Below, piece after piece: positions 4,619-55,608 of a stretch of 57,237 bases of DNA (positions are counted from its first letter, which is position 1; each line of letters begins with the position of its first letter). The notes below the pieces were generated by a model. The model had not been told where the DNA came from. It was given only the letters and a program-made list of their open reading frames with translations, and did no database searches. The position numbers and the translations under genes were made by a program. Source of the DNA: a virus (taxonomy: Duplodnaviria; Caudoviricetes); the IMG/VR virus record IMGVR_UViG_3300049186_000021, positions 1-57,237 of that record; one strand, given 5' to 3'.

Positions 4619-6813
4619 TTGCTGAATATTGATACTTTGTTGATTTCGATTGTTGGTTTCGGTGCGACCACGGGCGGCGCGCCAAATTGTTCACCGCGTT
4701 GGAATACCCAAACACGGGTGCCGAGAGGGCCGGGCTCGATAGAGCACTTGATGACGCCCTCCTTCTGGACGTTTTCCAGATAGCGGTTGATTTGGTCCAG
4801 CTTGATACTGCGGACAGCGACATCGTTTGGACCGGCGCTGAGCATGCGTTGTAACAGGGTCACTGTGCCGCGCCACTCAGTCGCTTCGGGGTTCGTTTCG
4901 AAGTGCATTCGAAGCATGTCGATTAAAAGTTCTTTGAACGGCGCGAAACGGCTGGACTGTTGCGCCTGTTCCATGAGAGACGGGTCTTTATAGGGGTAGT
5001 AGCCAAAGCGGGAATCCCGAATGACAAACTCAGGCGGCGTCCACTGGATCAACCACGCGAGAAAATACGGAAGCTCTTGAGTGATCAGCCTTTCGACTTC
5101 GTCGCGGGGCTCCCACTTGTCCTCGCGAGAGCGACAGCGTAACAGCATAATTTTGTCGAACGTGCCCGTGTCCATCGGACCGAGAATTCGGCTACTCGTT
5201 GAGTCGAGGTTCGTCGTGACGAAAAGTCGCCCATGCCACTCGGTCATGCCTGCAATCTGAAACTTCTGATTGCTCATCACATCTTTGTTTGCAACGATTT
5301 TCTTGATCTTGACCATCACGCCGTTTTGAGACCGGCTGTTGTCGGAGATCGTATCATCGTCTAGGCACCACTGTGGGAACCTAAAAAGGTGTTCCGTAAA
5401 GCTTTCGTTGTTGACTACATAACTCTCCACGTCAACGAAGCCCCCGACTGACCGGCCAACAATTTCACGGTTCAACAGGGTTTTGCCGCTATTCACTTCG
5501 CCCATCAAGAAGATCATAGTGCCGGGCCGGGGGGTATAATTAAGGCCACTCAGATAGTAGTATTGCCACCACGCGAGAAAATTGGCCAGCGATACTTCGT
5601 CAAACATGACGTTGAGTCGTTTCGAGAGCCAAGGAAATTTTCCAGTGGTCCCCCACTGAGTTACCTCATTCGCAGGCTTTACGACGTTAGAGATAAAAGT
5701 GTTTAAACGACGTTCTCCGAGATACATGAGGACTCCCGGTGGGCGGAATACATACGGTGCCGCATTCTTAATCCGATTCTCTTGATAGATGTGCTCAAGC
5801 GCGATCTTTAACAAAGACTTCTTACCCTTACTCGTGTCGTTTGTCAAACCGCAAGTGATTTCGAGGTAGTTCAAAAGCTCGTCTTTGCCGAGGGGGCACC
5901 AACTACCCTTAATCATCCGCCAGAAATTTTTACTTTCCCAGTAGATATCTTTCGTCGCTTTCGCGATGGCATCCTCCGAAAAGTTTTTGATGAATTCGGG
6001 ACCGAGTAGATCAGACCACGAGTAGAACACTTTGTCGGCGTGCGCGGAGAAGGTGAATATGCCATCACGCTTCACGATAGCCGACATCGGCGACGTGGAA
6101 GAAGGCACCCAAAACGTCGGGCCTTGCGCGGTCTCGACGAAGTCGCCCGGCCAGTTGGCAAACTCGGGATACTTGGCCTTCAGCGCGGCTTCGACGCGTT
6201 CCATAGGCACGTCCACGTCGGCCTTCGACTGAAAGCGATACCTCATCCCGCACTCGACGAAAAACGCCTGAAGCTTCGTCTCGGGGATCGGGCCGTGGCC
6301 GGTCTCTTTCCACTGGCAACCGTTGCACAGGAGCCTCGTGGGCGACTCCCAAGCGCCTTCGTCAAGGCCGGGGAGAAGATCGAGGTTCAGCCACTTGCGC
6401 GCCTGCTGGAGCACGAAGGAAGCGAATTCATAGGTGTCTACGCAGAGAGGACGAGGGAGAATCCAGACTAACCGGACGTTGCCGCCAACTGAGCGTTCGA
6501 TCCACGTCGGTTTGATGCCCATCGCCGCGATGGCTTCGAGGACGCGGGCTTCAGGAATGGCCACGTCAAAGTCAGCGTGAAACGCATGAAGGAACTTAGG
6601 CGGGTTGTCTTCGCGTGAAACCCGGCAGTTGGGATTGTAAGGCTCGAACGCGGAGTAAAAACTGTGACGCGTGTTGACGTTCTTATACCAGTCTTGGCGG
6701 GCATTCTTATCCTTTCGGATTTGTTCGGTGATCTGTTCTGTCGGCACAAATTCCCACGGGTTGCCGGGGAAAGTCTGCTTTTCGACTAGGTTCTGAGTAT
6801 AGTAAAACGGCAC
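4615..6813 (-). CDS. primase-helicase (N-terminal primase/PrimPol-like domain plus SF3/DUF5906-type helicase)
   Basis: DFD and SVGGNVRL in the N-terminus; Walker A GEVNSGKT, Walker B LDDD, motif C TTN; adjacent to DNA polymerase. Confidence 0.75.
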   Translation of the reverse strand: MPFYYTQNLVEKQTFPGNPWEFVPTEQITEQIRKDKNARQDWYKNVNTRHSFYSAFEPYNPNCRVSREDNPPKFLHAFHADFDVAIPEARVLEAIAAMGIKPTWIERSVGGNVRLVWILPRPLCVDTYEFASFVLQQARKWLNLDLLPGLDEGAWESPTRLLCNGCQWKETGHGPIPETKLQAFFVECGMRYRFQSKADVDVPMERVEAALKAKYPEFANWPGDFVETAQGPTFWVPSSTSPMSAIVKRDGIFTFSAHADKVFYSWSDLLGPEFIKNFSEDAIAKATKDIYWESKNFWRMIKGSWCPLGKDELLNYLEITCGLTNDTSKGKKSLLKIALEHIYQENRIKNAAPYVFRPPGVLMYLGERRLNTFISNVVKPANEVTQWGTTGKFPWLSKRLNVMFDEVSLANFLAWWQYYYLSGLNYTPRPGTMIFLMGEVNSGKTLLNREIVGRSVGGFVDVESYVVNNESFTEHLFRFPQWCLDDDTISDNSRSQNGVMVKIKKIVANKDVMSNQKFQIAGMTEWHGRLFVTTNLDSTSSRILGPMDTGTFDKIMLLRCRSREDKWEPRDEVERLITQELPYFLAWLIQWTPPEFVIRDSRFGYYPYKDPSLMEQAQQSSRFAPFKELLIDMLRMHFETNPEATEWRGTVTLLQRMLSAGPNDVAVRSIKLDQINRYLENVQKEGVIKCSIEPGPLGTRVWVFQRGEQFGAPPVVAPKPTIEINKVSIFSK

Positions 6814-6832
6814 AACTACAACAACTGCAATT

Positions 6833-6850
6833 TGACACCAATTGGTGTCA
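6833..6850. promoter_or_regulatory. 18-bp perfect palindrome TGACACCAATTGGTGTCA, copy 1 of 7
   Basis: between the polymerase stop and the primase-helicase start. Confidence 0.85.
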
Positions 6851-8845
6851 TTTGCAATAAAATTCTACTTCTTTCGCTTCGGCTGCGATTGGGCAGCCTT
6901 TGAGCCACTCCGGGCACTTGGACATGGTATGCTCGACATCTTTGGCCGATACATCCTGATCGACTTCTAGGACAGCTTCATCATGGACGCTAAAGAGGTT
7001 CGTCCAACCGTTGTCTTCCATCGCTATAAGGTGCTCTCCAAACACGTCTCTGGCAACTGCCTGAGTGATATTTTCTGTTAATTTTCCTCCATAGTTTTGA
7101 TACCGCTTTCCGCCCACTTCGGCGGTGTAGACATCCTGCCACTCGGGCTTTTTTGTCTCGTGGTTGGGCTTGAGCCGTTTTTCACAACGGACTTTGGTGT
7201 AAACCATCTTGCGTCCCGAGGGGAGAGTCATCGTGAAGTCTTCCCCAACTGACCGTTTAAACATACTGTCGAGGCGCTTCCAAATCCCGTCCTGCCCGGC
7301 GATCAGGGGATTCTGCTCTCGAAATTCTTTGACGATCTCCCGCGACCGTTTGCCGAATCCGCTCTTTTTCTGAAGGACACCGGTAAGCGGGTGGGGTTCT
7401 TCAATCCACTCCGGGTCGTCTTCGGTGATATCGAGCCCGGCCAGTGTCATAGCCATCTTGATGAACTTTTCCCAGCCTGCGCCGTATCCGAGGGCCAGCA
7501 CGCGCGCCTTAGCAAGCGCATACATCTTTGAGTTGGCCTTCTTTAACGGAGGGATCGAACCGGCCTTCCAACCCATCGTCGAGATCGCGTGGGCCTCGTA
7601 TGGCCCCAACCCCGAACCGAGAAGCTGTAACATCGCCTGATCGCCACACAGCCATGCCAGCACGCGAGGTTCGATCTGCGATAAATCGGAGACGATCATC
7701 TTCTTGCCGGGGCGCGGGATCACGAGGTTACGAAAATCGATGGCAAATTTAATCCAGTCCGGCCACTGACCGACTTCCTCATAATACCCAACGGCTGCCA
7801 TGCAACGTTTTTCGTTCATCTCCATCAGACCGTGCTCGTTGCAGAAAATCGGCACCTTGCGCATGTTCTGGAAATTGACACCGGAGTCGCCGGACCAGCG
7901 CCCGGTGTGCGCGCCGAAATATTTCAGGCCGAACGGGAGAGTGCCGTCGCCGCGAAGGCGCTCTTTGACCTTGACGAAGGTCTTGTAAATTTTATTGATC
8001 GAGCGCCACGCTGACACCGCCAGAATCCACGGGTGGTCCTTCGCGTAGGTGTCTTCCCAAGCTTGGTAACCTTCCTCGTCGTCGGACTTCGTGGGCGGAC
8101 ACGGGATGCCTTTTCGACGGCACTGCTCGGCGATGCACTTCGTTGAAGTCGGCTTCGTGTTGAAATCGTCCCAGCCTTCTTCGTCGTCTTCGGAGTCTTT
8201 GATCCACGGGATCAATTGCTCCGTGTTATGCTTCATCTCGTGACTCTGGCAGATGTAGAGATCAAGAAGCTCGACGTTGATCTGCACGCCACGTCGGCCT
8301 TGCGCGACCGTAAGTTGACTCAGGCGGCGTTCCAGCGTCGGCCACTTGTGAGAGTGGTCATTCCAAATCTTCCAGCACCAGTAGGCGTCCCGGCGCGCGT
8401 AATCGAGCATGTGCTTCTGCTCATCGGGATTGAAATCCTGCCAGCGTTTGTCTTTCGCGTCGCTACGCATCGACTTGTCAAGCCTCACGCCGTAAAGAAA
8501 TTCTACCGCTTGGTCAAGCGAGCGCCGGTTGCATAGAAAAGACGTGAGATTAGCCGTGCAGTGCCACTGCGCAGGGTTGGACTTGGGCTTCCACTCGCGG
8601 CGATCCAGTTCGGCAGTGACGGATTCGTCGAAGTAGGAATTGTGGGCGAGCCCAAGCTGGCCGTCCACCGCCGACCAGTTGAAATCTTTGATCGGACCAG
8701 CCCAGCAAGTGCTGCCGTCCGAGGCGGCAATCATGTAGGGGTCAAAAAGATCATGACGGCAGTATTGTTCTGCGATCATGGTCTTCACCGAATACTTCAG
8801 CTTGGGCGCGTAGTATGTTTCGTAATCGATTGCAACCGGCGTCAT
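6848..8845 (-). CDS. polA: DNA polymerase family A with 3'-5' exonuclease domain
   Basis: IDYET exonuclease I motif, YARRDA, HTGRWSG, SDLSQIEPRVLA (motif A), AKARVLALGYG (motif B), VHDE (motif C). Confidence 0.95.
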   Translation of the reverse strand: MTPVAIDYETYYAPKLKYSVKTMIAEQYCRHDLFDPYMIAASDGSTCWAGPIKDFNWSAVDGQLGLAHNSYFDESVTAELDRREWKPKSNPAQWHCTANLTSFLCNRRSLDQAVEFLYGVRLDKSMRSDAKDKRWQDFNPDEQKHMLDYARRDAYWCWKIWNDHSHKWPTLERRLSQLTVAQGRRGVQINVELLDLYICQSHEMKHNTEQLIPWIKDSEDDEEGWDDFNTKPTSTKCIAEQCRRKGIPCPPTKSDDEEGYQAWEDTYAKDHPWILAVSAWRSINKIYKTFVKVKERLRGDGTLPFGLKYFGAHTGRWSGDSGVNFQNMRKVPIFCNEHGLMEMNEKRCMAAVGYYEEVGQWPDWIKFAIDFRNLVIPRPGKKMIVSDLSQIEPRVLAWLCGDQAMLQLLGSGLGPYEAHAISTMGWKAGSIPPLKKANSKMYALAKARVLALGYGAGWEKFIKMAMTLAGLDITEDDPEWIEEPHPLTGVLQKKSGFGKRSREIVKEFREQNPLIAGQDGIWKRLDSMFKRSVGEDFTMTLPSGRKMVYTKVRCEKRLKPNHETKKPEWQDVYTAEVGGKRYQNYGGKLTENITQAVARDVFGEHLIAMEDNGWTNLFSVHDEAVLEVDQDVSAKDVEHTMSKCPEWLKGCPIAAEAKEVEFYCK

Positions 8846-8923
8846 TTGTAAACTTCACGCCCCGTTTCGCCGGGGCCACGCGGACTCGCATCACGCTGAG
8901 TCATGCGTCGTAGGTAGGAAAAT

Positions 8924-9316
8924 CTACCGGGTTCGACTCAGTGTTTGCCCACAAGAGGGCTGCGCCTGAACCTTCGCCTGAACGATGCGAGCTATCGCCT
9001 CATTCACTTCGCGCTCGAACTTGTCGAGCAAATTGCCTGTGGCAAACTTTGGGCACTCGTGCCCATCTTGGGTATAGAGCGGCTCGTGGACCGGCGTCGT
9101 ATACTTGCCGCGCAGATGCCGGACAGCGGCTTCCACGTCGGCCTTCACTTCGTCCATGAATTCAGAGCCCACTCGTTTGAACTTGCCCGCCCGGAACTTC
9201 GCTGAGCATTTCAGCGCGTATTCCTTGATGGCGGACTCGTTCACGAGCCGAGTGTTATCCGTCCACGCATGCGGATTCGTATCCGCGTCCGCTTGAGAGT
9301 CTTCGATGTTACTCAT
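8924..9316 (-). CDS. hypothetical protein
   Basis: AGGAGG Shine-Dalgarno before MSNIEDS; overlaps the upstream stop. Confidence 0.6.
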   Translation of the reverse strand: MSNIEDSQADADTNPHAWTDNTRLVNESAIKEYALKCSAKFRAGKFKRVGSEFMDEVKADVEAAVRHLRGKYTTPVHEPLYTQDGHECPKFATGNLLDKFEREVNEAIARIVQAKVQAQPSCGQTLSRTR

Positions 9317-9977
9317 CGCCGCCTCCTTCGTCGTCCGGGTCGAAGTCCAGAGCACCGACATCGAACGTCATCGGCCCGTGGCCAACGACCGGGCAAATCG
9401 GCGCGCCGATTTCGAGCCACTTCCGCGTCGCGCGAACGTTATATTCGCACTTGCTGCACTCGCACTTGATCAGACGCGTGGTCTGTTTCTTGCCGGGCAT
9501 ACGCATCCCGTCCAGTTTGGAGTGAGGATACGGGCCGAGTTTCGCAATCCACTTTTCGCAGATTTCGATCAGGTCTTTTTCGGCGCGCGTCGAAGTCAGT
9601 TTACCGCAGAGGTAAACCGCACGAGCACACTTGCCGAAAACTTTGTTGTGGCCTTCCTTGTTGCCGACAACGGCGTGGACGACTTCGTGGACGAGCGTCG
9701 GCAGGACGCCTTGCCCATCAGTCTGCCGCCCAATATGAATTTCCCCCCGCATGTATGGCGAGATGAAAATCTGGCTTCGCTTGTCCTCGGAAGCCGTCGT
9801 GGCCCAGCACTCGCCGAGAACACGTTTCTTGTTGCTTAAGCCGCGCGACGACGGCCAGCCGCAGGCAACCCGAATCTCGGGCACCTTGTAGCCCTTTTCT
9901 TCAAAGAGCGGAGTCATCAGCGCGACTGCGGCCATCAGCCATTCTTCGCGCGTGGAGTATTTGGGCTTATCGGCCAT
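9309..9977 (-). CDS. SprT-like zinc metalloprotease domain protein
   Basis: TLVHEVVH...GH zincin motif followed by CECSKC...CP zinc ribbon. Confidence 0.75.
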   Translation of the reverse strand: MADKPKYSTREEWLMAAVALMTPLFEEKGYKVPEIRVACGWPSSRGLSNKKRVLGECWATTASEDKRSQIFISPYMRGEIHIGRQTDGQGVLPTLVHEVVHAVVGNKEGHNKVFGKCARAVYLCGKLTSTRAEKDLIEICEKWIAKLGPYPHSKLDGMRMPGKKQTTRLIKCECSKCEYNVRATRKWLEIGAPICPVVGHGPMTFDVGALDFDPDDEGGGDE

Positions 9978-10156
9978 AAGAGTATTCGATGCGCTCGGTC
10001 TTCGAGAAACAGCGAGCCTTTTTATTCTGGTATTCGACCCGCCCGTTCGGGTTCGCCGCCACGAAGGCATCTCCGGCCTGCCGGAGCGCCTCTCGATTTG
10101 CTACTGTAACTTTTTTCATCTTCATGTTGTTCAGTTCCTTTCTCGGAACATCGTCA

Positions 10157-10184
10157 CTATACCATGTCCACGTTTAAACGCAAG
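10157..10184 (-). promoter_or_regulatory. sigma70-type promoter with GTTTAAAC overlapping the -35 box
   Basis: TTGCGT-N16-TATAGT on the minus strand. Confidence 0.55.
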
Positions 10185-17897: not shown

Positions 17898-18008
17898 TTT
17901 GTTTACCTTTTGTTTTTATGTCTTTGCTTTATTGCATTGACAGTTACAATACTACCAGAAACGACCAAGGAAAGCTATGGGGTAAATCCCCCATACCGGG
18001 GTAGGTGT

Positions 18009-20877: not shown

Positions 20878-20878
20878 G

Positions 20879-36015: not shown

Positions 36016-36092
<77 letters not shown>

Positions 36093-44759: not shown

Positions 44760-44774
44760 AATTCTTAACCTACC

Positions 44775-45086: not shown

Positions 45087-45095
45087 CCTACTCAT

Positions 45096-46475
45096 ATGCC
45101 AGACGAAAACAAAACGGGCGAAGGTTTTCCCGACCCTAGCAAAAACAATGAGGAAGTGGCTCAAAAACTGAAAGATCAGGATGTCCACTCTCAAAACAAT
45201 GTTGACCTGAAATCTCCTTCTGACGCACTCGACGCTTTGGTCGAAGCTAAGAAGAAAGAAAAGGAAGACGAAGACGCGACTCCGGCACCCGATAAAAAAG
45301 ACGATGCGACACCGCCTGCGAAAACCGAGGCCGAGCTTGCCGCCGAGAAAAAGGCGCAAGACGAGGCTGCGGCCAAGGCTGCGGAAGCCGAAGTGGCAAA
45401 GAAACGCGCCGACGAAATTTTCAAAGACACGCCGACGTTGCCACCGAACGCCAGCCCGAAGTCCACGGAAGCGTTCGCTACGATTAAGATCAAGGCGGCG
45501 CAAGAGATTACGGCCCGTGATGCAAAGATCGAAGAACTGACGAAACGTAACGCGGAATTGGAGAGCACCGTCAAGCAGAGCAAGCCGCTCACGCCGGAGA
45601 CGGAGAAAGAGATCGAGGAACTTCGGAAGTTCCGCGCTCGTCTGGATGTGGAAACTGATCCGCAGTTTAAACAGTTTGACAAGGCGGCTGACGCCGCGCG
45701 TGAATTCATTTACGCGCAGTTGAAAAAGTCCCCGGTCGTCACCGATGACGTGATTGCTGAGATCAAGAAGCACGGCGGGCCTGACAACGTTAAGCTCGAA
45801 AAGATTTTCGAGGCCGTGAAAGACCCGACGATTCAGCGATTGGTCGAGTCGAAGATTGCCGACATTGAAATGGCCAAGCATAACAAGCAGCAGGCCATCG
45901 CTTCTGCCAAGGAGAACATCAACCAGTATCTTCAGGAGCGGGAGAAGTCCATTGGCGAATCCGCGCAGGCTCACAACAAAGCCACGCAGGGGGCCTTTGA
46001 CCGGCTTCTTACGAGTGAGGCGCTTCAGTGGATGAAACCTAAAACCGTTGACGCGAAAGCGGACGAGGCCGCAAAGAAAGCCGCCGATGAGCACAATGCG
46101 TTTGTCAAGGTGACACAAGAGCAACTCACGAGTGCCTTGAACGACGACTCCCCGGAGATGCGTGCGATCCTTCTGGCCGGTATGGCTCAGTTGCTTCAAA
46201 CGCAACGGGTTCACGCCGCTGATAAAGCTCGGCTGGCGTCCATCGAGGCTGACCACAAGAAAGTGGTTGACGGGCATCTCGCCACAATCAAAGAGCTTCA
46301 GGGCAAGCTCGACAAGATCAAGGGTGCCAGCGTCTCGCGCCTTGAACAGACTGGCGCGGCCCCCGGTGGAAAACCGCCTTCGACGGTCAAAGAAGGCGAA
46401 ATCGATACTCGTCCTACGGTGCAAGCTCTCGACGATATCGCTCGCGACATCCGCGAGAAGCGTAACGCGAGTTAA
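45096..46475 (+). CDS. putative capsid scaffolding protein
   Basis: highly charged K/E/A-rich coiled coil downstream of the portal. Confidence 0.55.
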   Translation: MPDENKTGEGFPDPSKNNEEVAQKLKDQDVHSQNNVDLKSPSDALDALVEAKKKEKEDEDATPAPDKKDDATPPAKTEAELAAEKKAQDEAAAKAAEAEVAKKRADEIFKDTPTLPPNASPKSTEAFATIKIKAAQEITARDAKIEELTKRNAELESTVKQSKPLTPETEKEIEELRKFRARLDVETDPQFKQFDKAADAAREFIYAQLKKSPVVTDDVIAEIKKHGGPDNVKLEKIFEAVKDPTIQRLVESKIADIEMAKHNKQQAIASAKENINQYLQEREKSIGESAQAHNKATQGAFDRLLTSEALQWMKPKTVDAKADEAAKKAADEHNAFVKVTQEQLTSALNDDSPEMRAILLAGMAQLLQTQRVHAADKARLASIEADHKKVVDGHLATIKELQGKLDKIKGASVSRLEQTGAAPGGKPPSTVKEGEIDTRPTVQALDDIARDIREKRNAS

Positions 46476-47368
46476 TGCACAGCGATCACACAGAGGGAGC
46501 GCCGGGTGTTCCGGCGCTCCCAATGTCCACGGTCCGGGTCTTCGGCAAGAAGATCATGATCGTCATGCCTTGGTCTAAGACCATCAACCCAATCACTGCT
46601 TTTTCGGTCATGCAGTTAATTGACCGACGACGCACCGCGTCGATGTTGAATTATGGGGATGCCTTTATTGCGCACAGTCGTAATAGCTGTGCTGACGTTT
46701 TTCTTCAATCCGACATGGAATGGATGCTCACCGTGGACGATGACATGTTGCTGCCTTATGGCAATGCGCAGTGGTATCGAGCATATACGGGGTGGAATTG
46801 GTATCCTGATCCGTTTGCTTCGTTTAACACTCTCGACCGGCTTATGTCTCACGGGAAGACGATTATTGGTGCGCTTTATTTTGGTCGCCATCGTAACGGT
46901 CCTCCTGTATACGCGGAGGGTTCAATCGCCTCAGAATCCGCTTACGCTAGGTCCGGCCCCCACGACGTAATCAAAGCTACGAATTGGGTGGGCACGGGAG
47001 CGATGCTGATTCATCGATCTGTTTACGAGGACATCGAGAAAAAGTTCCCAGTGTTGGCGCGTGGTGCCAACGGAAAAGGGGGAAATTGGTTCACCAGTTC
47101 AGAGCATAACTTACTGGATGGGGTGCGACGAGTCCATCAGATGCTCGGTCAGGATGGACCGATGGATGGGACCAAGGCGCTCAAGGCTTACGAGATGCTT
47201 GAGGGCATCGTGAAGTCTACGGAGAAGAATTCATCCCTTGGTATGGGGGAGGACGTTGTATTTTGTCGTCGGGCGCGCGAGGCCGGTCATCAGGTCTTCA
47301 TTGACATGGGGTTGATTGCGGGGCACGTAGGCCATTGTGTTTACGGGCCAAAAAATACAGGTCAGTGA
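46475..47368 (+). CDS. glycosyltransferase (GT-A/GT2-like)
   Basis: IAHSRN, LTVDDDM, VGTGAMLIHRSV, GEDVVFC, GHVG. Confidence 0.8.
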   Translation: MHSDHTEGAPGVPALPMSTVRVFGKKIMIVMPWSKTINPITAFSVMQLIDRRRTASMLNYGDAFIAHSRNSCADVFLQSDMEWMLTVDDDMLLPYGNAQWYRAYTGWNWYPDPFASFNTLDRLMSHGKTIIGALYFGRHRNGPPVYAEGSIASESAYARSGPHDVIKATNWVGTGAMLIHRSVYEDIEKKFPVLARGANGKGGNWFTSSEHNLLDGVRRVHQMLGQDGPMDGTKALKAYEMLEGIVKSTEKNSSLGMGEDVVFCRRAREAGHQVFIDMGLIAGHVGHCVYGPKNTGQ

Positions 47369-48057
47369 TACCGCAACCTCCAGACAGTTTGCTTGTCGCC
47401 GGGCACCTTGAGTTTGGCGACGCACTGGTTTTGAATGGACTCATCCGAGAACTGGCGAAGACGGAGTCGAGGATTGTTTGGCTTACCAGCACAAGCTACG
47501 TGCGCGCCGTTCGAGAGATGATGCTCGATCTGCCGAATGTGGAAGTCATGGCGGCGCTCAGTTACGACGAAGTCAGACACAGGTGGATGCCGATTTGGCC
47601 GCGCAAGCTGTGCCTCGGTTATTTCAATCCCAACGGGTTTGACGAGTCAAAGTGGGACTCGGAGATGTATCGGCAGGCGGGGATGTCCTTCGATCTCCGA
47701 TGGACTAATTTTCGACTGCCTAAAAAACTTTGGGATAAGCCCGGCTACACACGCCGCGAGACCGTCGTCTTTCACGAAGACCCGAGGCGGGCTTTTTTCG
47801 TCAAGCGCAACATGCTGCCACAGAATTTGGAACAAATCCGAATCGATCAACGCCCGTCTATACTTGACTGGCTTCCTGATATCTATGCGGCCAAGGAGCT
47901 TCATTTCATCGACTCAAGTTTTCTGAATCTGGCCGAGTCGCTTTACGCGATGGGATTTTTGCGTGACAAGTCACTGGTATTTCATAAATATGCGAAGGCG
48001 TATCCCGGCAAGTCGCGGTGGCCGGTGCTTCGCGCTCCATGGATGGTGTTCGAATGA
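47365..48057 (+). CDS. glycosyltransferase-like protein (GT-B-like)
   Basis: HLEFGDALVLNGLIR and AKELHFIDSSFLNL. Confidence 0.55.
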   Translation: MIPQPPDSLLVAGHLEFGDALVLNGLIRELAKTESRIVWLTSTSYVRAVREMMLDLPNVEVMAALSYDEVRHRWMPIWPRKLCLGYFNPNGFDESKWDSEMYRQAGMSFDLRWTNFRLPKKLWDKPGYTRRETVVFHEDPRRAFFVKRNMLPQNLEQIRIDQRPSILDWLPDIYAAKELHFIDSSFLNLAESLYAMGFLRDKSLVFHKYAKAYPGKSRWPVLRAPWMVFE

Positions 48058-49037
48058 AATGGCTTCTACTCACAACTGCCCGGCGCACCCCCGAGACTTT
48101 AAACTCGAACGTGGGTGACGAATTTGCGTGCATAGGCACCGAAAATTTGATTAGGGCAGTAGATCGAAATGCTGAGTTTGATCGTTTAAACGTTGAGAAT
48201 CCTAACGAGTGGACTGAACGTCCGTTTGATCGCTGCGTGTTCGCGGGCCGTCCTCTTTGGTGGAGCCAACGACCCGGCACTGATTGCCTCGATCATTTTT
48301 GGTGGGAGCCGATAATGCGTGGGTGGCCGACCAAGAATCGACGCAACTTTCTGGTGTTAGGTGCCGGTAGTGTTTGCGTCGGGGAGATTCATGACACGGT
48401 CAAGTATATCCGAGCTATCTACGAAGTGTATAAACGCGCGTGGGCGGTGACGACCAGAAATACGGTGTTGGACCATCCGGGTTTTATCGACAGCGTGTGT
48501 CCTTCAGCCTTCGCGGTCCCTCCTAGGGTTTTGCAGAAAAAAGCACAAAAAGTTTGTAACCTGATGGTAGACGGCGGACACTTTCCATTAAGCTCTGACG
48601 ATGCGGGCGCGTGGGTAGATAAGTTCGATTCGATTGTCAGGGAGTTGCTTCGCAGTGAGTATACCTTCGTAGCCCACACGGAGCCTGAGCGCGATCTGGC
48701 CCTCTCCCTCGGATGGAAGCCCGAGGATGTTCGACTCTTTTCGTCGGCAGAAGAATACCTGTCGTTTTACGCTCGAACGACATGCTACTTTGGCAACCGG
48801 TTGCACGGGGCTGCGGTGTGCGCGGCTTTGGGAATCCCTACGGTCGCGGTCGCGTATGATACGCGGTTGAATTTTGTCCGGCGATTGGGCGCGCGGGCGC
48901 TCCGGCCTTCTCAGATTGATCTCGGGCATCTGAAGTTCTGGCTCCGAGGGGTGCTCTCTCCGACGACGCCACAGGTGGACTTGGCGACGGAGTATGAGCG
49001 CCTCTGTGAACTGCTCTACCGATTTGCTTACGAATGA
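48054..49037 (+). CDS. polysaccharide pyruvyl transferase family protein
   Basis: NVGDE, LGAG, VTTRN, CPS, GNRLHGAAVCAALGIPTVAVAYDTR. Confidence 0.8.
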   Translation: MKWLLLTTARRTPETLNSNVGDEFACIGTENLIRAVDRNAEFDRLNVENPNEWTERPFDRCVFAGRPLWWSQRPGTDCLDHFWWEPIMRGWPTKNRRNFLVLGAGSVCVGEIHDTVKYIRAIYEVYKRAWAVTTRNTVLDHPGFIDSVCPSAFAVPPRVLQKKAQKVCNLMVDGGHFPLSSDDAGAWVDKFDSIVRELLRSEYTFVAHTEPERDLALSLGWKPEDVRLFSSAEEYLSFYARTTCYFGNRLHGAAVCAALGIPTVAVAYDTRLNFVRRLGARALRPSQIDLGHLKFWLRGVLSPTTPQVDLATEYERLCELLYRFAYE

Positions 49038-49747
49038 AAGACGGGTTGATCTGCCTTCAGTATTGGGATGGGGACCGGGATAAAGCCATGCGCCTCGCGC
49101 GGTTCCTCGCCGATCTCGAACCATCAAAGCGCGAGGACGTGGACTTTGCGTTCTTCGCTCGCGCCGACAGTTCGTTCGACGTGGCTACCGTCGCCCACGT
49201 GGCACGCAAGTTCAACGTTCACACAGCCAAGCCGAGGATTCGCGCGGCTGGACATCCGTATGCGTGCTGGGTTACATTTTTTTCGGTGCTGGAGTGGGTG
49301 CTGGAGGCCCGGCTCAAGGGACGGTCGAGATATAAGTGGGTTCTTTGTTTCGAGCCAGATTGTGTCCCGCTGACCAAGTCATGGATTGACGAACTGAAAG
49401 AGGAATGGAACCGTTTAAACAAGTATGTGGTGGGGAGCGAAACTTTTCATTGGCAAATGCACTTGAACGGGAATGCGCTTTACTCGGCGGATGAAAAATT
49501 TCTTACATGGTTTGTTCGCGGCCTTACTCTGAACGGCTGCCCGCAACGTGAACCCTACGACATTTATTTGTTCCCGCAGTTCGCGCGCTGGGGCGTTGGC
49601 TACTCCCGCAAAATTTCGAACCGGTGCGGGCAGAAGACGATGGCCCCCGATGAAGCCAAGTGGCTCCGCGAGAAGATGGGTATCGCATTGGTTCACGGGG
49701 TCAAGGACGACAGCCTTCATCATTGGGCGACTTCGAATTTGAAATGA
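49034..49747 (+). CDS. glycosyltransferase-like protein
   Basis: FEPDCVP (ExD), HLNGNALY, YD, VHGVKD. Confidence 0.55.
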   Translation: MKDGLICLQYWDGDRDKAMRLARFLADLEPSKREDVDFAFFARADSSFDVATVAHVARKFNVHTAKPRIRAAGHPYACWVTFFSVLEWVLEARLKGRSRYKWVLCFEPDCVPLTKSWIDELKEEWNRLNKYVVGSETFHWQMHLNGNALYSADEKFLTWFVRGLTLNGCPQREPYDIYLFPQFARWGVGYSRKISNRCGQKTMAPDEAKWLREKMGIALVHGVKDDSLHHWATSNLK

Positions 49748-49765
49748 CACCAATTGGTGTCATTT
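49742..49765. promoter_or_regulatory. palindrome copy 7 (24 bp here), just upstream of the capsid promoter
   Basis: AAATGACACCAATTGGTGTCATTT; TTGTCC-N15-AGCACT at 49772-49798. Confidence 0.85.
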
Positions 49766-49954
49766 AGCACCTTGTCCGACTTCTGAATTAGCAGCACTGT
49801 TTCCTTGACGCCTTACTGCGCTCCCCGGCGTCGGGAGCACGGCCTATCCGCTGATGGCCACAGCGACCAAACATAAATCTCTGCCGAGAGGATCGTTTTC
49901 TCGGTGCCGGTTTGAGACCCGGTAATGTAAAGTCTCTGTTAGGAAACTCGGATT

Positions 49955-51238
49955 ATGGCAGAATTTTGTGATGATCCCTCAGATATCAGTGATATCGCTA
50001 CGAGGGACACCGCGCGCGTCATTGGCTCAATCGCCAAGTCGCTTGCGGCCAACTCCCCTTACTTGAACGTGATCGGCGGCGGGACGTTCCCGTCCGGCGT
50101 CTCCGACACCGTTCGCTCCGTCGTGCAGATGCAGGCTGCTCCCGGTGACTCGCTTGCCCTGCCTACGTTCCTTTGTGACGTGGACATGTGCGGTCAGACC
50201 GGTCATCAAGACCTGACTGACACCATCGAGTTTACGACCAAGCTGGAATCGTTCCGTGGTCGTGGCCCGAACATCTGCGTGAAGAAAGGCTATTCGGCCT
50301 TCAAAGGCAGCTATTCGATGGCTGAAGACAGCTTGAAGAAGCTGATCACCCAGTATGTGAACGCTGACGTTCGCGCTCAGTTGTATCTGCGCTCGGCGTC
50401 GAAGTTCACCGCCAACCACAACTACGACTTCAACTCGTTGTTTACCGGTGGCTCCGAGACTGATCTCGGCGTCAAGTTCGCTCCGCTGCTCCCGACCGGC
50501 CCGATGACCTTCAAGGCGCTCCACTATCTGGCGCGCTACCTGAAGGAGACTCTTTTCGCCGACTGGTATACTAGCGCGGGCTCCATGCCTCACTTCCGCT
50601 TCATCGGTGGTAGCGATCAGATCGAATACTACCGCTCCGAAGTCGGTGTGCAGAACGTCATGACTGCTCTCACGCAGGGCGGTTACAAACTCGGCGAAAC
50701 GGCGCTCACGGCCTATGGCTTCGAGCAGTCCCCGGCGTATCGCGGCATCGCTTTCGGTGTCGATCAGCGCCCGCTGCGTTTCAACGCGTTCGACGGTGCC
50801 GGGCTCCCGGTCCTGTTGAACCCTGTGACGATTGTTACCAACGCGTCCAAAGGCACTGCCTACGCGAAGGCCAATCCGACGTGGCTCGACGCCAACTACG
50901 AAATCGGCACGTTCATTGCCGAAGGCTCGTTCGAACGTCAGGTTCCCGAGAAGTATGTCGGCGAAGGCAGCTTCAAGTTCGCCCCGCAGTTGCACATGGG
51001 TGAACTGGAATGGCATTACCTGAAGGACAACCACTGTAACCAGTGGGGTGACTTCGGCTGGCACAAATACCAGATCACGCGCGCTTACAAGCCGCTCCGT
51101 CCGCAGCACATCATCCACATCGCCTACAAGCGTTGTAAGACCGACCTCGGTCTGGTGGAGTGCCCGACTGAGCCGGTGCAGTCCAGCTACACTGGTGCTG
51201 ACAGCTACACCACCGTTGGTGTGACCTGCGAAGAATAA
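49955..51238 (+). CDS. major capsid protein
   Basis: 427 aa, strongly biased codon use, own promoter and terminator, position after portal and scaffold. Confidence 0.75.
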   Translation: MAEFCDDPSDISDIATRDTARVIGSIAKSLAANSPYLNVIGGGTFPSGVSDTVRSVVQMQAAPGDSLALPTFLCDVDMCGQTGHQDLTDTIEFTTKLESFRGRGPNICVKKGYSAFKGSYSMAEDSLKKLITQYVNADVRAQLYLRSASKFTANHNYDFNSLFTGGSETDLGVKFAPLLPTGPMTFKALHYLARYLKETLFADWYTSAGSMPHFRFIGGSDQIEYYRSEVGVQNVMTALTQGGYKLGETALTAYGFEQSPAYRGIAFGVDQRPLRFNAFDGAGLPVLLNPVTIVTNASKGTAYAKANPTWLDANYEIGTFIAEGSFERQVPEKYVGEGSFKFAPQLHMGELEWHYLKDNHCNQWGDFGWHKYQITRAYKPLRPQHIIHIAYKRCKTDLGLVECPTEPVQSSYTGADSYTTVGVTCEE

Positions 51239-51280
51239 CTCGGGAAACCGAGTATCGTCAAGGGTAGGTGACGAAAACAG

Positions 51281-51316
51281 AGCCGGGCGGGGGCGAGTAA
51301 CCTTCGCCCGGCTTTT
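51281..51316 (+). terminator. intrinsic terminator after the capsid gene
   Basis: AGCCGGGCG/CGCCCGGCT followed by a T run. Confidence 0.75.
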
Positions 51317-51322
51317 CCTCAA

Positions 51323-51718
51323 ATGGCAAACGAATTTCAGTTCGCAGATACGGAGTGGGAGATCGTTCGTGAGATTCTCGCGAAGTCGAAAACCGGCTCT
51401 GATCATGAGAACGACGGGCGATCCGGCGATTTGCTTACGGACCTATTCGAAAAACTACTCGCCCGTATCAAAACTGGCGCGGATGACGAGAATGATTCTC
51501 GTCCCGGCGACAATGAAGTCGTCACTCTGCGCAAAATTCTCGCGCGGTGGAAAACGGGGGCGGATGACGAGAATGATTTTCGGCCCGGTGACGGAAAGCA
51601 TCAGGTGCTCCGAAAGATTTTAGCTCGTAAGAAGGTGGGGGCCGATAATGAAAACGATTTCCAATTCGGCGACTCAGCCTATTCAATCCTGCGGAAGCTG
51701 CTCGCGCGACTTCCCTAA
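51323..51718 (+). CDS. tandem-repeat protein (about 4.5 x 27 aa)
   Basis: repeat unit LRKILARxKTGADxENDxxxGD. Confidence 0.7.
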   Translation: MANEFQFADTEWEIVREILAKSKTGSDHENDGRSGDLLTDLFEKLLARIKTGADDENDSRPGDNEVVTLRKILARWKTGADDENDFRPGDGKHQVLRKILARKKVGADNENDFQFGDSAYSILRKLLARLP

Positions 51719-51719
51719 A

Positions 51720-51947
51720 ATGAGTTTCAAAATGAATCTGTCTGACAAAGCGATGGTTGCCCTCGTGGCAACGAATGGGGTAGTGGCGTGGGTCCAAAAG
51801 ATTTGCGCTGCGGTTGAACCGGTTATCGCGCCGTTGATTTCACTCGGCCAACTTGGAATTGCAATCGCCACTATCGTTTGGATTTGCGTCCGTGTGCGGG
51901 GCGTGCGCCTCGACAACAAGATCAAAGAGAAAGAATTGAAGAAGTGA
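51720..51947 (+). CDS. holin-like membrane protein
   Basis: hydrophobic segments and basic C-terminus, upstream of a lipoprotein. Confidence 0.55.
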   Translation: MSFKMNLSDKAMVALVATNGVVAWVQKICAAVEPVIAPLISLGQLGIAIATIVWICVRVRGVRLDNKIKEKELKK

Positions 51948-52681
51948 AGCGTTATCTCCTACTCTTACTCGCCGCGACGTTGATCGCGGGCTGCTCCACG
52001 TTCATCCCGAAGCGGGTGGAATTGGGACAGGACAAGGTCCAGAAGTTTCCGCAGCCGACAGAGAAGCGAAAGGAAGCTGAGCGGCAGGCGGTGTTGTTGG
52101 CCGCGCAAAAAGCTCGTGAAGCGGAACGCATCGCGGCACTGGAGGGCAGCGCGGCGGAAAAGCCCGCTGGGGAAGCGGCGTCGCTGGCCGAGTCGGTCAG
52201 CCTGAGTCTCGGTCCTCCAAAAAACCCATGGAGTGGTGAAGTTGAAGTGCTGCGGCTGCAAGTTGCGCGTCTGACGGCGGAACATAATTTGATGCTCGCC
52301 AAGTTCGCTAAGGAGAACGACAAGAACGAAGGTAAGAAGATCGAGGGCACTGGTTGGCTTTCGGTGCCGTATTTTGTTTGGACTGGTGGGGCTTTGCTGT
52401 TGATTTTTTTCGGGTTCATCGTGCTGAAGGTGGCGTTGAGCTTTGTCTCTATGGCGAACCCCGGGGTGGCGGTTGGGATGAGGGTCGCCAAAGTTGGCGG
52501 GCGGGCCGTGTCACGAGCTTTCTCTGAAGTGCTCGAAGGCGGGGAAGCGTTTAAACGTCGAGTGCAGGAAAAGCTGCCGGACGTGTCCGAGCAGGTTCTC
52601 GAATTGTTTCGGGAAATGCAGGAACGTCGCCAGTCAACCGAGACTCAAAAAATGATTAAGGAGTTGACGGAAAAGGTATGA
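51944..52681 (+). CDS. lipoprotein with coiled coil and transmembrane segment (spanin-like)
   Basis: KRYLLLLLAATLIAG-C lipobox; later segment YFVWTGGALLLIFFGFIVL. Confidence 0.55.
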   Translation: MKRYLLLLLAATLIAGCSTFIPKRVELGQDKVQKFPQPTEKRKEAERQAVLLAAQKAREAERIAALEGSAAEKPAGEAASLAESVSLSLGPPKNPWSGEVEVLRLQVARLTAEHNLMLAKFAKENDKNEGKKIEGTGWLSVPYFVWTGGALLLIFFGFIVLKVALSFVSMANPGVAVGMRVAKVGGRAVSRAFSEVLEGGEAFKRRVQEKLPDVSEQVLELFREMQERRQSTETQKMIKELTEKV

Positions 52682-53718
52682 GTTGCGGATGCAATACAGA
52701 TACGGCGACGTGCGGCAATCCCTGCGCCACGTCGGAAACGAACACGGCGGCGTGCGAATCGCTCCCAAGTCAGATCGAGAATTTTACGGCGCAGTTCTTT
52801 GGAGTTGTCGTCAAGTCTGAAGTGGATGGCGAGGTTGTGTGGACGCTGCCGTGCAATCTGGAAACCGGACTGGAGAATAACCCTCGCGCTGAGGACGAAG
52901 GGCTGGCGTGCTATTTTCTTCGGCTTTTTCGGGATGGTATCCTCGGTTTGACGGGTCCGCAAGGTGAGACCGGAGCGGACGGCACAAATGGTCGTAACGC
53001 ATACACGGTTACGCTTCAGTCGTTCACCCAGCCGACGCTGGGCTCGCCGACTGTTACTGTTCAGACGCAATACAATCCGGCGATTTTGGAGAACAGCTAT
53101 ATCTTCATCGCTACCTCGGGTTGGTATCACGTGGACGCGACTGATACTTCGGGAACGTTGTTCCTGACACTGGTCAAGGAAGTAACGGGCGCGAGTGGCA
53201 CAATTACGGCGGGCAAGCTCGTGGTGCCGTCCGGGTTCCCCGGCGTCAGCGTTACGGGACCGACAGGCCCTCAAGGTCCACAGGGGCCGCAAGGTCCGGC
53301 TGGGGCTTCCCTAACGGAAGACAATGCATTTTTCTTTGCGACTGTGGGTGTGGATTTCAATCTCCCGCTTCTTTATGCGGCAGTTGATTATACCAATTCG
53401 ACCCCGCAAATTCTTCTCCCCACGGCAGGCATCTATAAAGTGACTGCGGTTGTGGGGCTTATTGGCTTGGCGAGCGTCGCTATAACCGACACTGTTTCCC
53501 TGAAACTTCGGAACACGTCCAATGCGTCGGACGTGAGTGGTTCTGAGGTTGAAGTAAACGATTTCGCTGAAGACAGCGTGAAACAATTGGTGATCGATGT
53601 GTTTGTGACGACTGACGGGGCCAACCAAACGATTGCGCTGTTCGGCAAGTGCGCGACGGCAGATCGGGTTGCGGCCCGGGCTCTCAAAACCACGATTACC
53701 GCGATTAGGATTGAATGA
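52678..53718 (+). CDS. virion fibre protein with short collagen-like segments
   Basis: GPTGPQGPQGPQGPAG followed by a beta-rich C-terminal domain. Confidence 0.65.
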   Translation: MSCGCNTDTATCGNPCATSETNTAACESLPSQIENFTAQFFGVVVKSEVDGEVVWTLPCNLETGLENNPRAEDEGLACYFLRLFRDGILGLTGPQGETGADGTNGRNAYTVTLQSFTQPTLGSPTVTVQTQYNPAILENSYIFIATSGWYHVDATDTSGTLFLTLVKEVTGASGTITAGKLVVPSGFPGVSVTGPTGPQGPQGPQGPAGASLTEDNAFFFATVGVDFNLPLLYAAVDYTNSTPQILLPTAGIYKVTAVVGLIGLASVAITDTVSLKLRNTSNASDVSGSEVEVNDFAEDSVKQLVIDVFVTTDGANQTIALFGKCATADRVAARALKTTITAIRIE

Positions 53719-54071
53719 GTCGGGGCGGTTTTTCTCCCGTAACCACGGCAGCGTCCGGCGAAAGCCATGCGTCGATTAAGCAGTCTCGTAACGGCGGGGT
53801 AAACACCCCCGCCATTACAGCAGCGTCCGGCGAGAGCCGTTCATCGGTCAAGCAGCATCGTAATGGGGGTATAACGGTTCCTGTCGTGGCTGCGGAAGCG
53901 GTTTGTGACCGCCCCGATGGCGGGGACAAGACGGCCTTGGCTCCGGGGTATGCTCTCGAAGTTGCCAATCCGCCTTCCCCGGGATTAGACGCTTCCTGTT
54001 TGTGGCAGGACGACAACGGAATCATCGTTCAGGAAAACGATGGTGACACAATTTGTATCGATAACGCGTGA
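53715..54071 (+). CDS. hypothetical virion protein with an internal duplication
   Basis: TAASGES..S.KQ.RNGG occurs twice. Confidence 0.5.
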
Positions 54072-55237
54072 GAACGAGTAGTATTCCAGTTTTTTTGGAC
54101 CCCGGTTTGCCGACTGGGTATGGTGTCGCGACCGTCGAAATTTCGCCGGGCGTTTTTCGTCTTCGACTTGTCCCGTTGGAAAATTTGAAGGGGGACACGG
54201 GGGATGCGGGGCCGACTGGCGCGACCGGCGCGACTGGACCGCAGGGTCCGGCTGGTGCAACTGGTCCGGCTGGTGCGACCGGCGCGACTGGTGCGACTGG
54301 TGCAACTGGTGCGACCGGTCCGCAAGGTGCAACTGGCCCGGCTGGTGCGACCGGTGCGACCGGTGCAACGGGAGCAACTGGTGCGGCGGGATCAGTATGG
54401 CGTGAAGGAACGGGGGCTCCGTCAAACGGCCTTGGGGTGGATGGGGATTTTTATCTCGAAGACGTAACAGGCGATGTCTATCAAAAAGCCGCAGGCACGT
54501 ATTCCGTAGTTGCTAACATTAAAGGCCCGGCTGGGTCGAATGGAACAGCAACGGTGTGGCGAGAAGGAACTGGTGTGCCTTCTAATGGGCTCGGGATAAA
54601 TGGTGATTTTTATCTTGACGATGCGACCGGAGATGTCTACCAGAAAGCGTCGGGGACTTATTCTGTCGTTGCCAACATAAAAGGTCCGACTGGAGCGACC
54701 GGCGCAGCCGGTGCTGATGGCGCTGATGGCGCGGACGGCGCGGATGGAGTAAACGGTGCTGACGGGTCAGTATGGCGCGAAGGAACTGGTGTGCCTTCGA
54801 ATGGACTCGGGGTCAATGGGGATTTTTATCTCGAAGATGTGACCGGGGATGTCTACCAGAAAGCAGCCGGAGTGTATTCGGTTGTGGCGAACATCAAAGG
54901 TCCAACTGGTGCTACGGGTCCAGAGGGTTCGTATTCGCACTCAGTTCTGACGTATAGCGCAACGACCAACATCGATTTTGACGGGGACGACTATCGGTCT
55001 TTAACGCTTGCGGGCAACGTCACTTTTACTACTTCGAACAGGGGTGCCCCCAAATCGATTACTATACGTATTATCGGCGATGGATCGTTGCGCACTTTGA
55101 CGTTCCCGGCTGGATGGACTTTTTTGGGCGACGGTGCCCCGGTTTCACTCGCCGCTAATAAGGATGCGGTTCTGTCGGTAACGTGTTTCGGTTCGGCGGA
55201 TTCGGACATTGTCGCGGCATACGCAGTCGAGCCATGA
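54068..55237 (+). CDS. collagen-like tail fibre protein
   Basis: Gly-X-Y runs plus three copies of [45 protein letters not shown]. Confidence 0.8.
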
Positions 55238-55608
55238 GATCACTTAGCTTACTCGATGCTCCGTTTCTTATCGCGACCCTCGGTGGAATCCCCCGCGATG
55301 ACATGGAGGGGTATTCTGATTTGGTATTTTTGAATGCCCTCAACGGAGGGGCTCGATGGACCGGGGCCTATGCGGCTCGAAATAATTTTATGGGCGTCCA
55401 AGCTGAAGACGACATGGAGTCGTATACGGACGGCGCGGATGTTGATAGTTTAAACGGTGGATCGTCGGGTTGGACTGGGGCATATCAGACCGTTGTCAAC
55501 TATACGGGGCTCAAAGCGCAGGATGACATGGAATCCTACACTGATCTTGCGAATCTTAATGGGCAAAATGGTGGGGTGGGGTGGACTGCGGCTTACGTGG
55601 CGCGGTAA
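55234..55608 (+). CDS. three-repeat virion protein
   Basis: DDMExYxD...NGG..WTxAY occurs three times. Confidence 0.6.

Follow-up and report, generated by a model that had tools for sequence, protein, structure and literature searches.

In a few model systems, protein-binding sites are scattered along a mobile genome. The KorB operators (OB sites) of IncP plasmid RK2 and the ParB-type parS sites are identical palindromes dispersed over a mobile genome of about 60 kb, at promoters and far from them, and they are read by an element-encoded dimer. Chi is an 8-mer that occurs roughly once per 3 to 5 kb and is enriched by selection. It is asymmetric, polar, and host-wide, and it is read by RecBCD or AddAB. 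Here, we describe an 8-bp palindrome, GTTTAAAC, that is iterated along a 57,237-bp IMG/VR virus record (IMGVR_UViG_3300049186_000021; estimated completeness, 79%), and a SprT-like zinc-ribbon gene that accompanies it. Below, "the window" means this whole stretch of DNA.

Three other systems come from published work. In cluster A mycobacteriophages, the L5 repressor gp71 is reported to read more than 20 copies of one short site spread over the genome, some of which serve as promoter operators (PMC9283540). These sites (stoperators) are asymmetric 13-mers in short intergenic spaces, with an orientation tied to transcription, and are read by a monomeric helix-turn-helix (HTH) repressor of a temperate phage. 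HIP1 (GCGATCGC) of cyanobacteria is an 8-bp palindrome that is iterated many times and distributed quasi-periodically (PMC13756078). One proposal for how it arose is methylation-dependent mismatch repair, and in some strains other words take the place of HIP1 (PMC4390886). Finally, ArdC of plasmid R388 is an antirestriction, DNA-binding protein with a Spartan/IrrE-like HExxH domain and early expression after entry, and Spartan and IrrE are named as the nearest structural homologues of its protease domain (PMC7213743).

The window resembles the L5 system in that a single short site is repeated many times along a phage genome and lies partly in promoters. However, its site is an exact palindrome of 8 to 10 bp with regular spacing and a SprT-like metallopeptidase partner, and the same word is common to unrelated plasmids and prophages. 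Confinement to promoters or short gaps was not found, because 14 of the 20 window sites and 118 of 161 sites from its clade are inside genes. Nor was the L5 orientation rule, because the site is palindromic, and an asymmetric variant word in one relative, GTTTACAC, is co-oriented with the gene at nine sites and opposed at five. As with KorB and ParB, identical palindromes are dispersed over the element, some at promoters, but the window copies are more numerous than OB sites, mostly inside genes, and evenly spaced. Pfam and PHROG scans of window proteins revealed no ParB-family protein, with many small open reading frames (ORFs) falling outside the scans. Like HIP1, the word is an iterated, quasi-periodic 8-bp palindrome that is replaced by another word in some lineages. 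However, HIP1 is a property of the host chromosome tied to methyltransferases, whereas the window word belongs to mobile elements with one protease-like gene. The window word has none of the properties of Chi where they could be tested. The window SprT-like protein shares the top structural neighbors reported for ArdC (Spartan SprT domain and IrrE), although ArdC binds single-stranded DNA nonspecifically through a separate N-terminal domain and is without a known cognate site, whereas the window protein has a C-terminal zinc ribbon and travels with an exact DNA word. None of these five systems combines an exact palindrome, regular intragenic spacing, restriction to mobile elements, and a protease-like partner.

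Enrichment and spacing of the palindrome

An earlier note, made from the window sequence alone, had listed 20 copies of the octamer and judged them far above chance. All 20 positions were exact, and GTTTAAAC is the most frequent 8-mer of the window. Dinucleotide shuffles had a mean of 0.61 copies (100 shuffles; largest, 4; none reached 20). TTTAAA occurs 25 times in the window, and 20 of these fall within GTTTAAAC, whereas one-mismatch variants of the octamer were not enriched. The base 5' of the octamer is a pyrimidine at 18/20 sites, and the base 3' of it is a purine at 19/20. Therefore, the full site is a 10-bp dyad, YGTTTAAACR, mostly CGTTTAAACG (the extended form of 8 of the 20 window sites).

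Gene calls came from our own codon-based caller, which is crude. They placed 14 sites in coding sequence and 6 in intergenic DNA or at gene edges, in line with the note's statement that most copies are inside genes. We then applied the codon-preserving shuffle that the note had proposed, exchanging synonymous codons within each gene so that protein sequences and per-gene codon usage were kept. The enrichment survived, with 14 coding sites against a mean of 1.90 (largest, 7; 200 shuffles). TTA accounts for only 72 of the 1,318 leucine codons in the window, yet TTA-AAC encodes 9 of the 67 Leu-Asn pairs, and 7 of these 9 are full sites. The sites are also evenly spaced and unclustered, as had been claimed. 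Gaps range from 1,028 to 4,897 bp with a coefficient of variation (CV) of 0.39, and none of 20,000 uniform placements had a gap CV as low. Site 18021 is intact in a strain variant of sequencing run X1, which has 35 differences across 17838 to 18032 but none in 18019 to 18028. The base 3' of the site changes from A to G, which keeps the purine.

The trait is common to a clade of uncultured soil phages of about 72 kb. The major capsid protein identified 96 IMG/VR relatives at 65 to 81% identity, many on contigs of 70 to 75 kb. Whole records of relatives contain 6 to 16 copies of GTTTAAAC versus 0 to 3 of the reversed word, used as a control. The octamer was the top overrepresented 8-mer in 7 of 11 fetched relatives and among the top five in the other 4, and the maximum of the codon-aware null was exceeded in 12/12 genomes tested. 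Gaps in most of 11 relatives were more even than chance (combined P of about 5e-6, for genomes that are related to one another). Beyond the octamer, only Y at -1 and R at +1 were conserved in 161 sites. A comparison of sites with orthologous positions, also proposed in the note, found the word kept in 98/1,092 cases, versus 101/5,969 for neighboring 8-mers. Therefore, existing sites are conserved about fivefold above background, while most positions turn over across the whole set.

Two kinds of exception occur. A deep sister clade of eight genomes has 0 or 1 site each, and G035, which lies inside the motif clade, has none. In G011, the word has been switched. This genome has 14 copies of GTTTACAC (1.3 expected) with the same Y/R flanks, one GTTTAAAC, and no GTGTACAC. 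A second contig set of the G011 lineage has 4/4 GTTTACAC copies in the same orientation, in the structural region. Along G011 the orientations run +++-++++++----, but a replichore-like polarity was not established (permutation P of 0.078).

Other words were considered and set aside. AT-rich 8-mers (AAAGTTTT, AAAAGTTT, TGAAAAGC, and AAAGCTTT) exceed the codon-aware null in G029, G020, G023, G037, G035, G016, and G013, where they are coding and have random-like spacing. Those of motif-free relatives (AAAGTTTT, GAAAAATT, TGAAAAGC, and AAAGCTTT) are not analogues of the octamer, all being coding and spaced with a CV of 0.74 to 1.26. In the fragment G024, GTTTGAAC and GTTTAAGC were set aside as well; five of nine GTTTGAAC copies are in one giant gene and may reflect protein repeats. 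GGAATTCC in G011 (L093 to L096) has 10 sites with about 3 expected under the codon-aware null, and these are unevenly spaced.

Sites at promoters and within genes

The 20 GTTTAAAC sites of the window, with the putative promoters that hold four of them, are as follows.

5701 to 5708: site within the primase/helicase-like gene 4615-6813 (-)
7255 to 7262: site within the DNA polymerase A gene 6848-8845 (-)
10172 to 10179: site in the promoter upstream of the SprT-like gene
10156 to 10183 (-): sigma70-like promoter, TTGCGT-N16-TATAGT, TG-extended, holding site 10172; below the consensus-scan threshold
14635 to 14642: site within the SNF2/ResIII helicase gene 14554-16155 (-)
18021 to 18028: intergenic site
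20114 to 20121: site in ORF 19947-20447 (-)
22006 to 22013: site within or next to small ORFs, for which the gene call is uncertain
24824 to 24831: site close to the start of small ORF 24663-24854 (-)
26289 to 26296: site in a leaderless early promoter
26273 to 26301 (-): promoter TTGACG-N17-TATAGT, ATG 6 nt beyond; passes the consensus scanner
28632 to 28639: site in a leaderless early promoter
28616 to 28644 (-): promoter TTGACG-N17-TAAGGT, ATG at 28609
29660 to 29667: site in a leaderless early promoter
29643 to 29671 (-): promoter TTGCGT-N17-TAGTCT, ATG at 29636
34557 to 34564: intergenic site, 15 nt upstream of ORF 34579-34758 (+)
37104 to 37111: site in codons 3 to 5 of the trypsin-like peptidase gene 37097-37975 (+)
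40605 to 40612: site in ORF 39859-41772 (+)
42229 to 42236: site in the Cys-rich ORF 41769-42347 (+)
45665 to 45672: site in ORF 45096-46475 (+)
48184 to 48191: site in ORF 48018-49037 (+)
49413 to 49420: site in ORF 49034-49747 (+)
52549 to 52556: site in ORF 51878-52681 (+)
55448 to 55455: site in ORF 55183-55608 (+)

Measured from the end of the DNA polymerase A gene, window site 7255 has a counterpart at nearly the same distance in relatives G001 and G002.

The note had also claimed that the copies at 10172, 26289, 28632, and 29660 overlap -35 boxes, and this holds when the minus strand is read. There, the four promoters have TTGAC or TTGC followed directly by GTTTAAAC, N10, and TAnnnT. 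Therefore, the octamer would provide the last one or two bases of the -35 element and the upstream part of the spacer. All four fit this looser pattern, although only one of them (26289, TTGACG-17-TATAGT) passed a consensus scanner, which found 14 promoter-like sites in the window versus 8.8 in shuffles (standard deviation, 2.8), a total that is not clearly above background. The promoter assignment rests mainly on recurrence across genomes. Among the 161 sites pooled from 12 genomes, 43 are intergenic, and 16 (in nine genomes) share a single register: TTG(A)C, GTTTAAAC, N10, TAnnnT, N5-8, and ATG. From its sequence, this architecture is a predicted sigma70-type promoter of a leaderless transcript, in which the octamer spans the last part of the -35 element and the upstream spacer. 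The same promoter type without the motif is present in motif-rich and motif-free genomes alike. Therefore, the motif appears to have been added to the promoter at a position suited to repression and does not seem to belong to the promoter proper. Early genes at window 26266, 28609, and 29636 and in relatives, motif-free ones included, appear to be leaderless, with ATG 5 to 8 nt past the -10 element.

The intragenic sites (73% of the clade set) are different. No conserved -10 or -35 partner was found at any fixed distance from coding sites in the 161-site set. Therefore, the coding sites are not promoters, and for the same reason, we rejected late or phage-sigma promoters as an explanation. We also rejected a signal at the RNA level and a slippery site for frameshifting (T_TTA_AAC), because sites occur in both possible reading frames (F-K at 68 sites and L-N at 50) as well as in intergenic DNA, and because the orientation of the asymmetric variant does not follow transcription. 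Finally, motif-bearing promoters are followed by first genes of varied kinds, so we rejected the idea that these promoters serve one conserved small regulator.

A SprT-like zinc-ribbon gene as candidate reader

We clustered the predicted proteins of 29 genomes and extended the analysis by tblastn and profile searches. A single group was widespread in motif-rich genomes (13/15 fetched) but missing both from the motif-free clade (0/8) and from G035. Judged by sequence, the gene that tracks the motif is a putative SprT-like zinc-ribbon gene.

9309 to 10070 (-): SprT-like HExxH metallopeptidase with a C-terminal zinc ribbon ("gpX"); start probably at 9977; candidate reader of the motif

The gene is in 17/20 motif-rich near-complete relatives versus 0/10 motif-poor ones (Fisher P of 1e-5, with no correction for phylogeny), and the variant-word genome G011 has it as well. 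A site upstream of the gene was found in 13/15 gene-bearing clade genomes. The nearest one is 21 to 989 nt away in 11 of the 13, with two or fewer small genes between and usually with the leaderless-promoter architecture. In G011, the promoter of the SprT-like operon carries GTTTACAC.

The note had read the octamer as a selected genome-wide binding site reused as an operator at early promoters, possibly for self-marking. We retain that core because of the codon-aware enrichment, the even spacing, the clade-wide trait, the fixed register in 16 promoters, and the co-variation of GTTTACAC at the SprT-like promoter. However, the three binders that it had put forward are not supported. The product of 17220-17897 has no family match and is not among the gene groups present in at least 10 of the 15 motif-rich genomes. 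The product of 32090-32752 (ORF 32033-32752) is present in motif-rich and motif-free relatives alike. So is that of 1627-2868 (ORF 1627-2907), named for its HTH, which is an exonuclease-like protein.

The SprT-like protein has about 210 residues and a Cys-rich C-terminal ribbon. The HExxH motif and third histidine ligand of a SprT-like zincin are present in its family, with H97, E98, H101, and H110 invariant in 14 sequences. Its closest solved relatives are the Spartan SprT domain (6mdx; profile E value of 0.008) and IrrE, and PF10263 is precomputed for many of its relatives. Pfam reported no ArdC-N domain at the thresholds used, with no separate ArdC-N profile search made, and the architecture is a protease domain plus the C-terminal zinc ribbon. 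Structure prediction suggests a homodimer, with a score of 0.59 versus 0.00 for the best of three controls. The mark for this score was reached by 20/30 proteins solved as pairs and 1/23 solved as single chains, counts that hold only roughly here because our own alignment was used. The homodimer runs shared at least 61% of contacts, with a partner predicted local distance difference test (pLDDT) score of at least 78. In the model, the two chains meet at a symmetric interface that does not involve the ribbons.

The protein has relatives at 30 to 48% identity in 53 bacterial genome loci, which span the Alpha- and Betaproteobacteria, Verrucomicrobia, Actinobacteria, Chloroflexi, Dormibacterota, and others, and 48/53 contain GTTTAAAC. 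The 52 nonduplicate loci (829,719 bp; G+C fraction of 0.43 to 0.73) have 124 copies versus 4.4 expected. Twelve motif-related control words, several with exactly the same composition, occur 0 to 13 times. The flanks agree with those of the phage clade (before the octamer, C94/T26/A2/G2; after it, G100/A21/C2/T1). These loci share only the SprT-like gene with the window, apart from scattered matches of five other ORFs in one or two loci each. The gene is in various kinds of mobile DNA. In sphingomonad plasmids (L312, pUT1; L313, pBSY17_4), it immediately precedes parA, a ribbon-helix-helix gene, and repA. In Geminisphaera, it is in a prophage with a GpA terminase. In L282, an alphaproteobacterial locus from a group with the same two-site layout, it is between a MobA/VirD2 relaxase and a TraG/VirD4 coupling protein. 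The alphaproteobacterial element with this gene order is present in four copies in one metagenome-assembled genome.

We also examined 11 named records that carry a SprT-like homologue, again with the reversed word as control. Five of them contain the octamer, as follows.

Dinoroseobacter phage R5C: GTTTAAAC, 17; reversed control, 0
E. coli phage vB_EcoM-ep3: GTTTAAAC, 4; reversed control, 0
Acinetobacter phage Alexa: GTTTAAAC, 8; reversed control, 1
Plasmid pUT1: GTTTAAAC, 5; reversed control, 0
Plasmid pBSY17_4: GTTTAAAC, 2; reversed control, 0

In ep3, Alexa, and R5C, CGTTTAAACG is at or beside the promoter of the SprT-like gene. Even spacing recurs in R5C (CV of 0.61; P of 0.03) and in the Geminisphaera prophage (CV of 0.49; P of 0.005). 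No description of the motif was found in the literature searched, including the R5C genome paper (a term search, with supplementary files outside it). Phages, prophages, plasmids, and conjugative elements of several bacterial phyla have in common one exact 10-bp word and, alongside it, the same small protease-like gene.

The distribution is specific to the elements. Five whole genomes (4 to 8 Mb) of hosts of gene-bearing elements contain 26, 5, 7, 9, and 9 copies of GTTTAAAC, versus 65, 9, 9, 38, and 51 of the reversed control, so the word is not enriched in any of these chromosomes and is at or below the control in all five. The 26 copies are those of Geminisphaera, and 15 of them are within the 39-kb prophage (binomial P of about 2e-26). 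For these five hosts, the counts speak against a host Chi or a HIP1-like host word, although a Chi role in the window's own host is possible.

These results bear on two alternatives. In the first, a machine moving along DNA reads one strand of the octamer, which would be either a lagging-strand start for a primase or a Chi-like control sequence for a helicase-nuclease, and the palindrome serves both directions. The spacing of 1 to 5 kb is of the order of Okazaki fragments or Chi, exact words without enriched one-mismatch variants resemble enzyme sites, and the asymmetric GTTTACAC of G011 falls in two orientation arcs, independent of gene strand. However, the two-arc pattern was not significant, the word is not a host Chi in the five hosts, the same site is used by plasmids and conjugative elements with quite different replication machinery, and fixed placement in promoters is unexplained. 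We therefore consider strand reading quite improbable. In the second alternative, the enrichment has no selected binding function and is a by-product of methylation or repair, of a HIP1-style ratchet, or of nick or modification targets. HIP1, for which a mismatch-repair origin has been proposed, is a precedent for such an iterated 8-bp palindrome, and the nucleotide-metabolism genes of the window hint at base modification. Even so, neither host-wide iteration nor a cognate methyltransferase was found, the former in the five hosts and the latter among the 49 window proteins scanned against Pfam (about 21% of the genome is missing from the record). Moreover, even spacing recurs in four unrelated elements. 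A by-product origin seems very improbable to us.

At roughly even odds, we propose that YGTTTAAACR is the cognate DNA site of the element-encoded SprT-like zinc-ribbon protein, that it stations this protein on the element's own DNA, and that it doubles as an operator. We infer binding, the match of dimer to dyad, and the protease target. Elements that carry the gene would accumulate exact copies of the site, which the protein would bind as a symmetric dimer, as its predicted interface suggests. Phage copies every 1 to 5 kb through coding and noncoding DNA would post the protein along the element DNA and not along the host chromosome. Copies on early promoters, including the promoter or operon of the SprT-like gene itself, would provide feedback control. 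By analogy with ArdC and Spartan, a metallopeptidase stationed in this way would most likely act on host proteins bound to element DNA or moving along it, such as defense enzymes and silencers. Even spacing would suit interception of DNA-tracking enzymes or the breakup of silencer filaments.

Several observations weigh against the SprT-like protein as the reader. Three motif-rich genomes are without the gene: G017 (14 sites), G018 (10 sites), and G006 (8 sites). G017 and G018 are the two genomes with random-like spacing (CVs of 0.94 and 0.92), and in the capsid tree, G017 is sister to motif-free G035. Sites that decay once the gene is lost would give this picture, although few events are involved. 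The capsid tree also indicates that the gene-motif association in the clade rests on few independent evolutionary events. Similarly, many of the 52 loci are related copies of one alphaproteobacterial element, so their 124 sites are not independent. One site per locus is often inside the SprT-like gene itself, at an offset of about +300 to +420 nt, which, judged from the offset and not from translation, is apparently at or near the conserved HNKxF(K) motif. Six of the 11 homologue-bearing records (Arthrobacter MaGuCo, Microbacterium Zeta1847, Streptomyces UNTPL, Pseudomonas Epa5, Bordetella FP1, and plasmid pBN5) have no GTTTAAAC. These may read another word, or none. The asymmetric GTTTACAC is hard to reconcile with a symmetric dimer. 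Structural similarity is weak, with template-modeling (TM) scores of about 0.3 (Foldseek against the Spartan SprT domain: E value of 0.02, probability of 0.98, and TM score of 0.29, for a model with a pLDDT of 78.8). The PF10263 score of the window protein is 16.5, below the curated cutoff of 25.6 (the L282 homologue scores 23.6). Also, the heterogeneity of the first genes downstream of motif-bearing promoters means that the SprT-like gene could be cargo of another reader.

Such a reader would be another element-encoded DNA-binding regulator, similar to KorB or a stoperator repressor. The SprT-like gene would then be one of the early genes that it controls, and the intragenic copies would be auxiliary operators, roadblocks, or sinks. 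The fixed register of 16/161 sites in leaderless promoters before varied genes favors such a regulator, and the motif-rich genomes without the SprT-like gene are consistent with it. The window also uses other operator-like sites, in the form of a second, 20-bp palindrome with seven copies (see below). However, no other gene group tracks the motif, and unrelated plasmids, prophages, and conjugative elements that share only the SprT-like gene with the window are enriched for the same site. In addition, most sites are intragenic without partner promoter elements. A different regulator therefore appears unlikely.

If the SprT-like protein reads the word, then site and reader would form a portable module by which mobile DNA labels itself. 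This would give a testable function to the widespread "SprT-like protease" genes of phages and plasmids, and the module could be studied in cultured systems, namely, E. coli phage vB_EcoM-ep3, Dinoroseobacter phage R5C, and the sphingomonad plasmids. A more specific version is a sentinel array, in which sequence-specific, dimeric SprT-like metalloproteases parked on CGTTTAAACG every few kilobases, on mobile DNA only, cleave or block host proteins that bind foreign DNA or track along it. The targets might be translocating restriction enzymes, structural maintenance of chromosomes (SMC)-type defense complexes, or xenogeneic silencers. We regard this version as doubtful but worth stating, because if true, it would be a widespread antidefense principle in which an element's own DNA is marked in cis.

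Other features of the window phage

Megablast of the window against cultured phages returned no match, so it has no close cultured relative. Near-identical DNA was present in assembled contigs of 19 soil or rhizosphere sequencing runs. Six short contigs came from RNA libraries, which is not evidence of transcription. The major capsid protein had no relative among bacterial genomes, hence no host was assigned to the window. Replication and early genes occupy the left arm (minus strand). Their products include a DNA polymerase A, a DUF5906 primase/helicase, an SNF2-type helicase, and a PD-(D/E)XK exonuclease, together with a sigma factor, a nucleoside deoxyribosyltransferase-like protein, and a NUDIX protein. 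The structural genes of the right arm (plus strand) had no family match in the Pfam and PHROG scans. The sigma factor gene (3923-4618, minus strand) encodes Sigma70_r2 and r4 domains and matches PHROG 351. Three minus-strand genes (18634-19596, 22667-23125, and 23109-23732) form a group, with products that are dNMP-kinase-like, nucleoside 2-deoxyribosyltransferase-like, and NUDIX, hinting at an unusual nucleotide pool or modified bases.

On the plus strand, there is a tRNA-Met (CAT) gene at 36016-36092. A short serine-recombinase-like gene (Resolvase and partial Recombinase domains; 38069-38926) is just upstream of the large conserved structural-arm genes (39859-41772 onward; no family match) and is kept in 15/15 motif-rich and 7/8 motif-free relatives. 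The Cys-rich ORF at 41769-42347 encodes a conserved 192-amino-acid protein with several CxxC motifs and no family match. It is flanked by the two largest conserved ORFs of the structural arm, 39859-41772 and 42645-44759. The window does not include the tail genes or the region of a giant ORF (about 2,070 to 3,355 amino acids) that relatives have just upstream of the window start (G001 [L007], 1004-8869; G011, 44367-54434). This giant ORF had no PDB or Pfam-level identity, the G001 version having been searched against solved structures.

The second palindrome, of 18 to 20 bp, is (T)TGACACCAATTGGTGTCA(A). Its seven copies are at 6838, 16875, 24648, 29236, 35472, 38429, and 49750, and a degenerate copy, CCAATTGG, is at 31190. 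Five of the seven are outside called genes, at gene boundaries, and the copy at 29236 occupies the spacer of a sigma70-like promoter. TGACACCAATTGGTGTCA was found in none of 28 related genomes examined. Its role may be that of a classical operator or of a processing site.

Strain variation in the soil runs includes the hypervariable intergenic stretch at 17838-18032, insertions of 15 and 9 nt (23626 and 31678), and contigs that skip 380 and 114 nt (20716-21097 and 22556-22671). Between 14 kb and 34 kb, summed contig depth rises about twofold in runs X1 and X4 and less in X5, which could reflect a mixture of strains or a copy number gradient.

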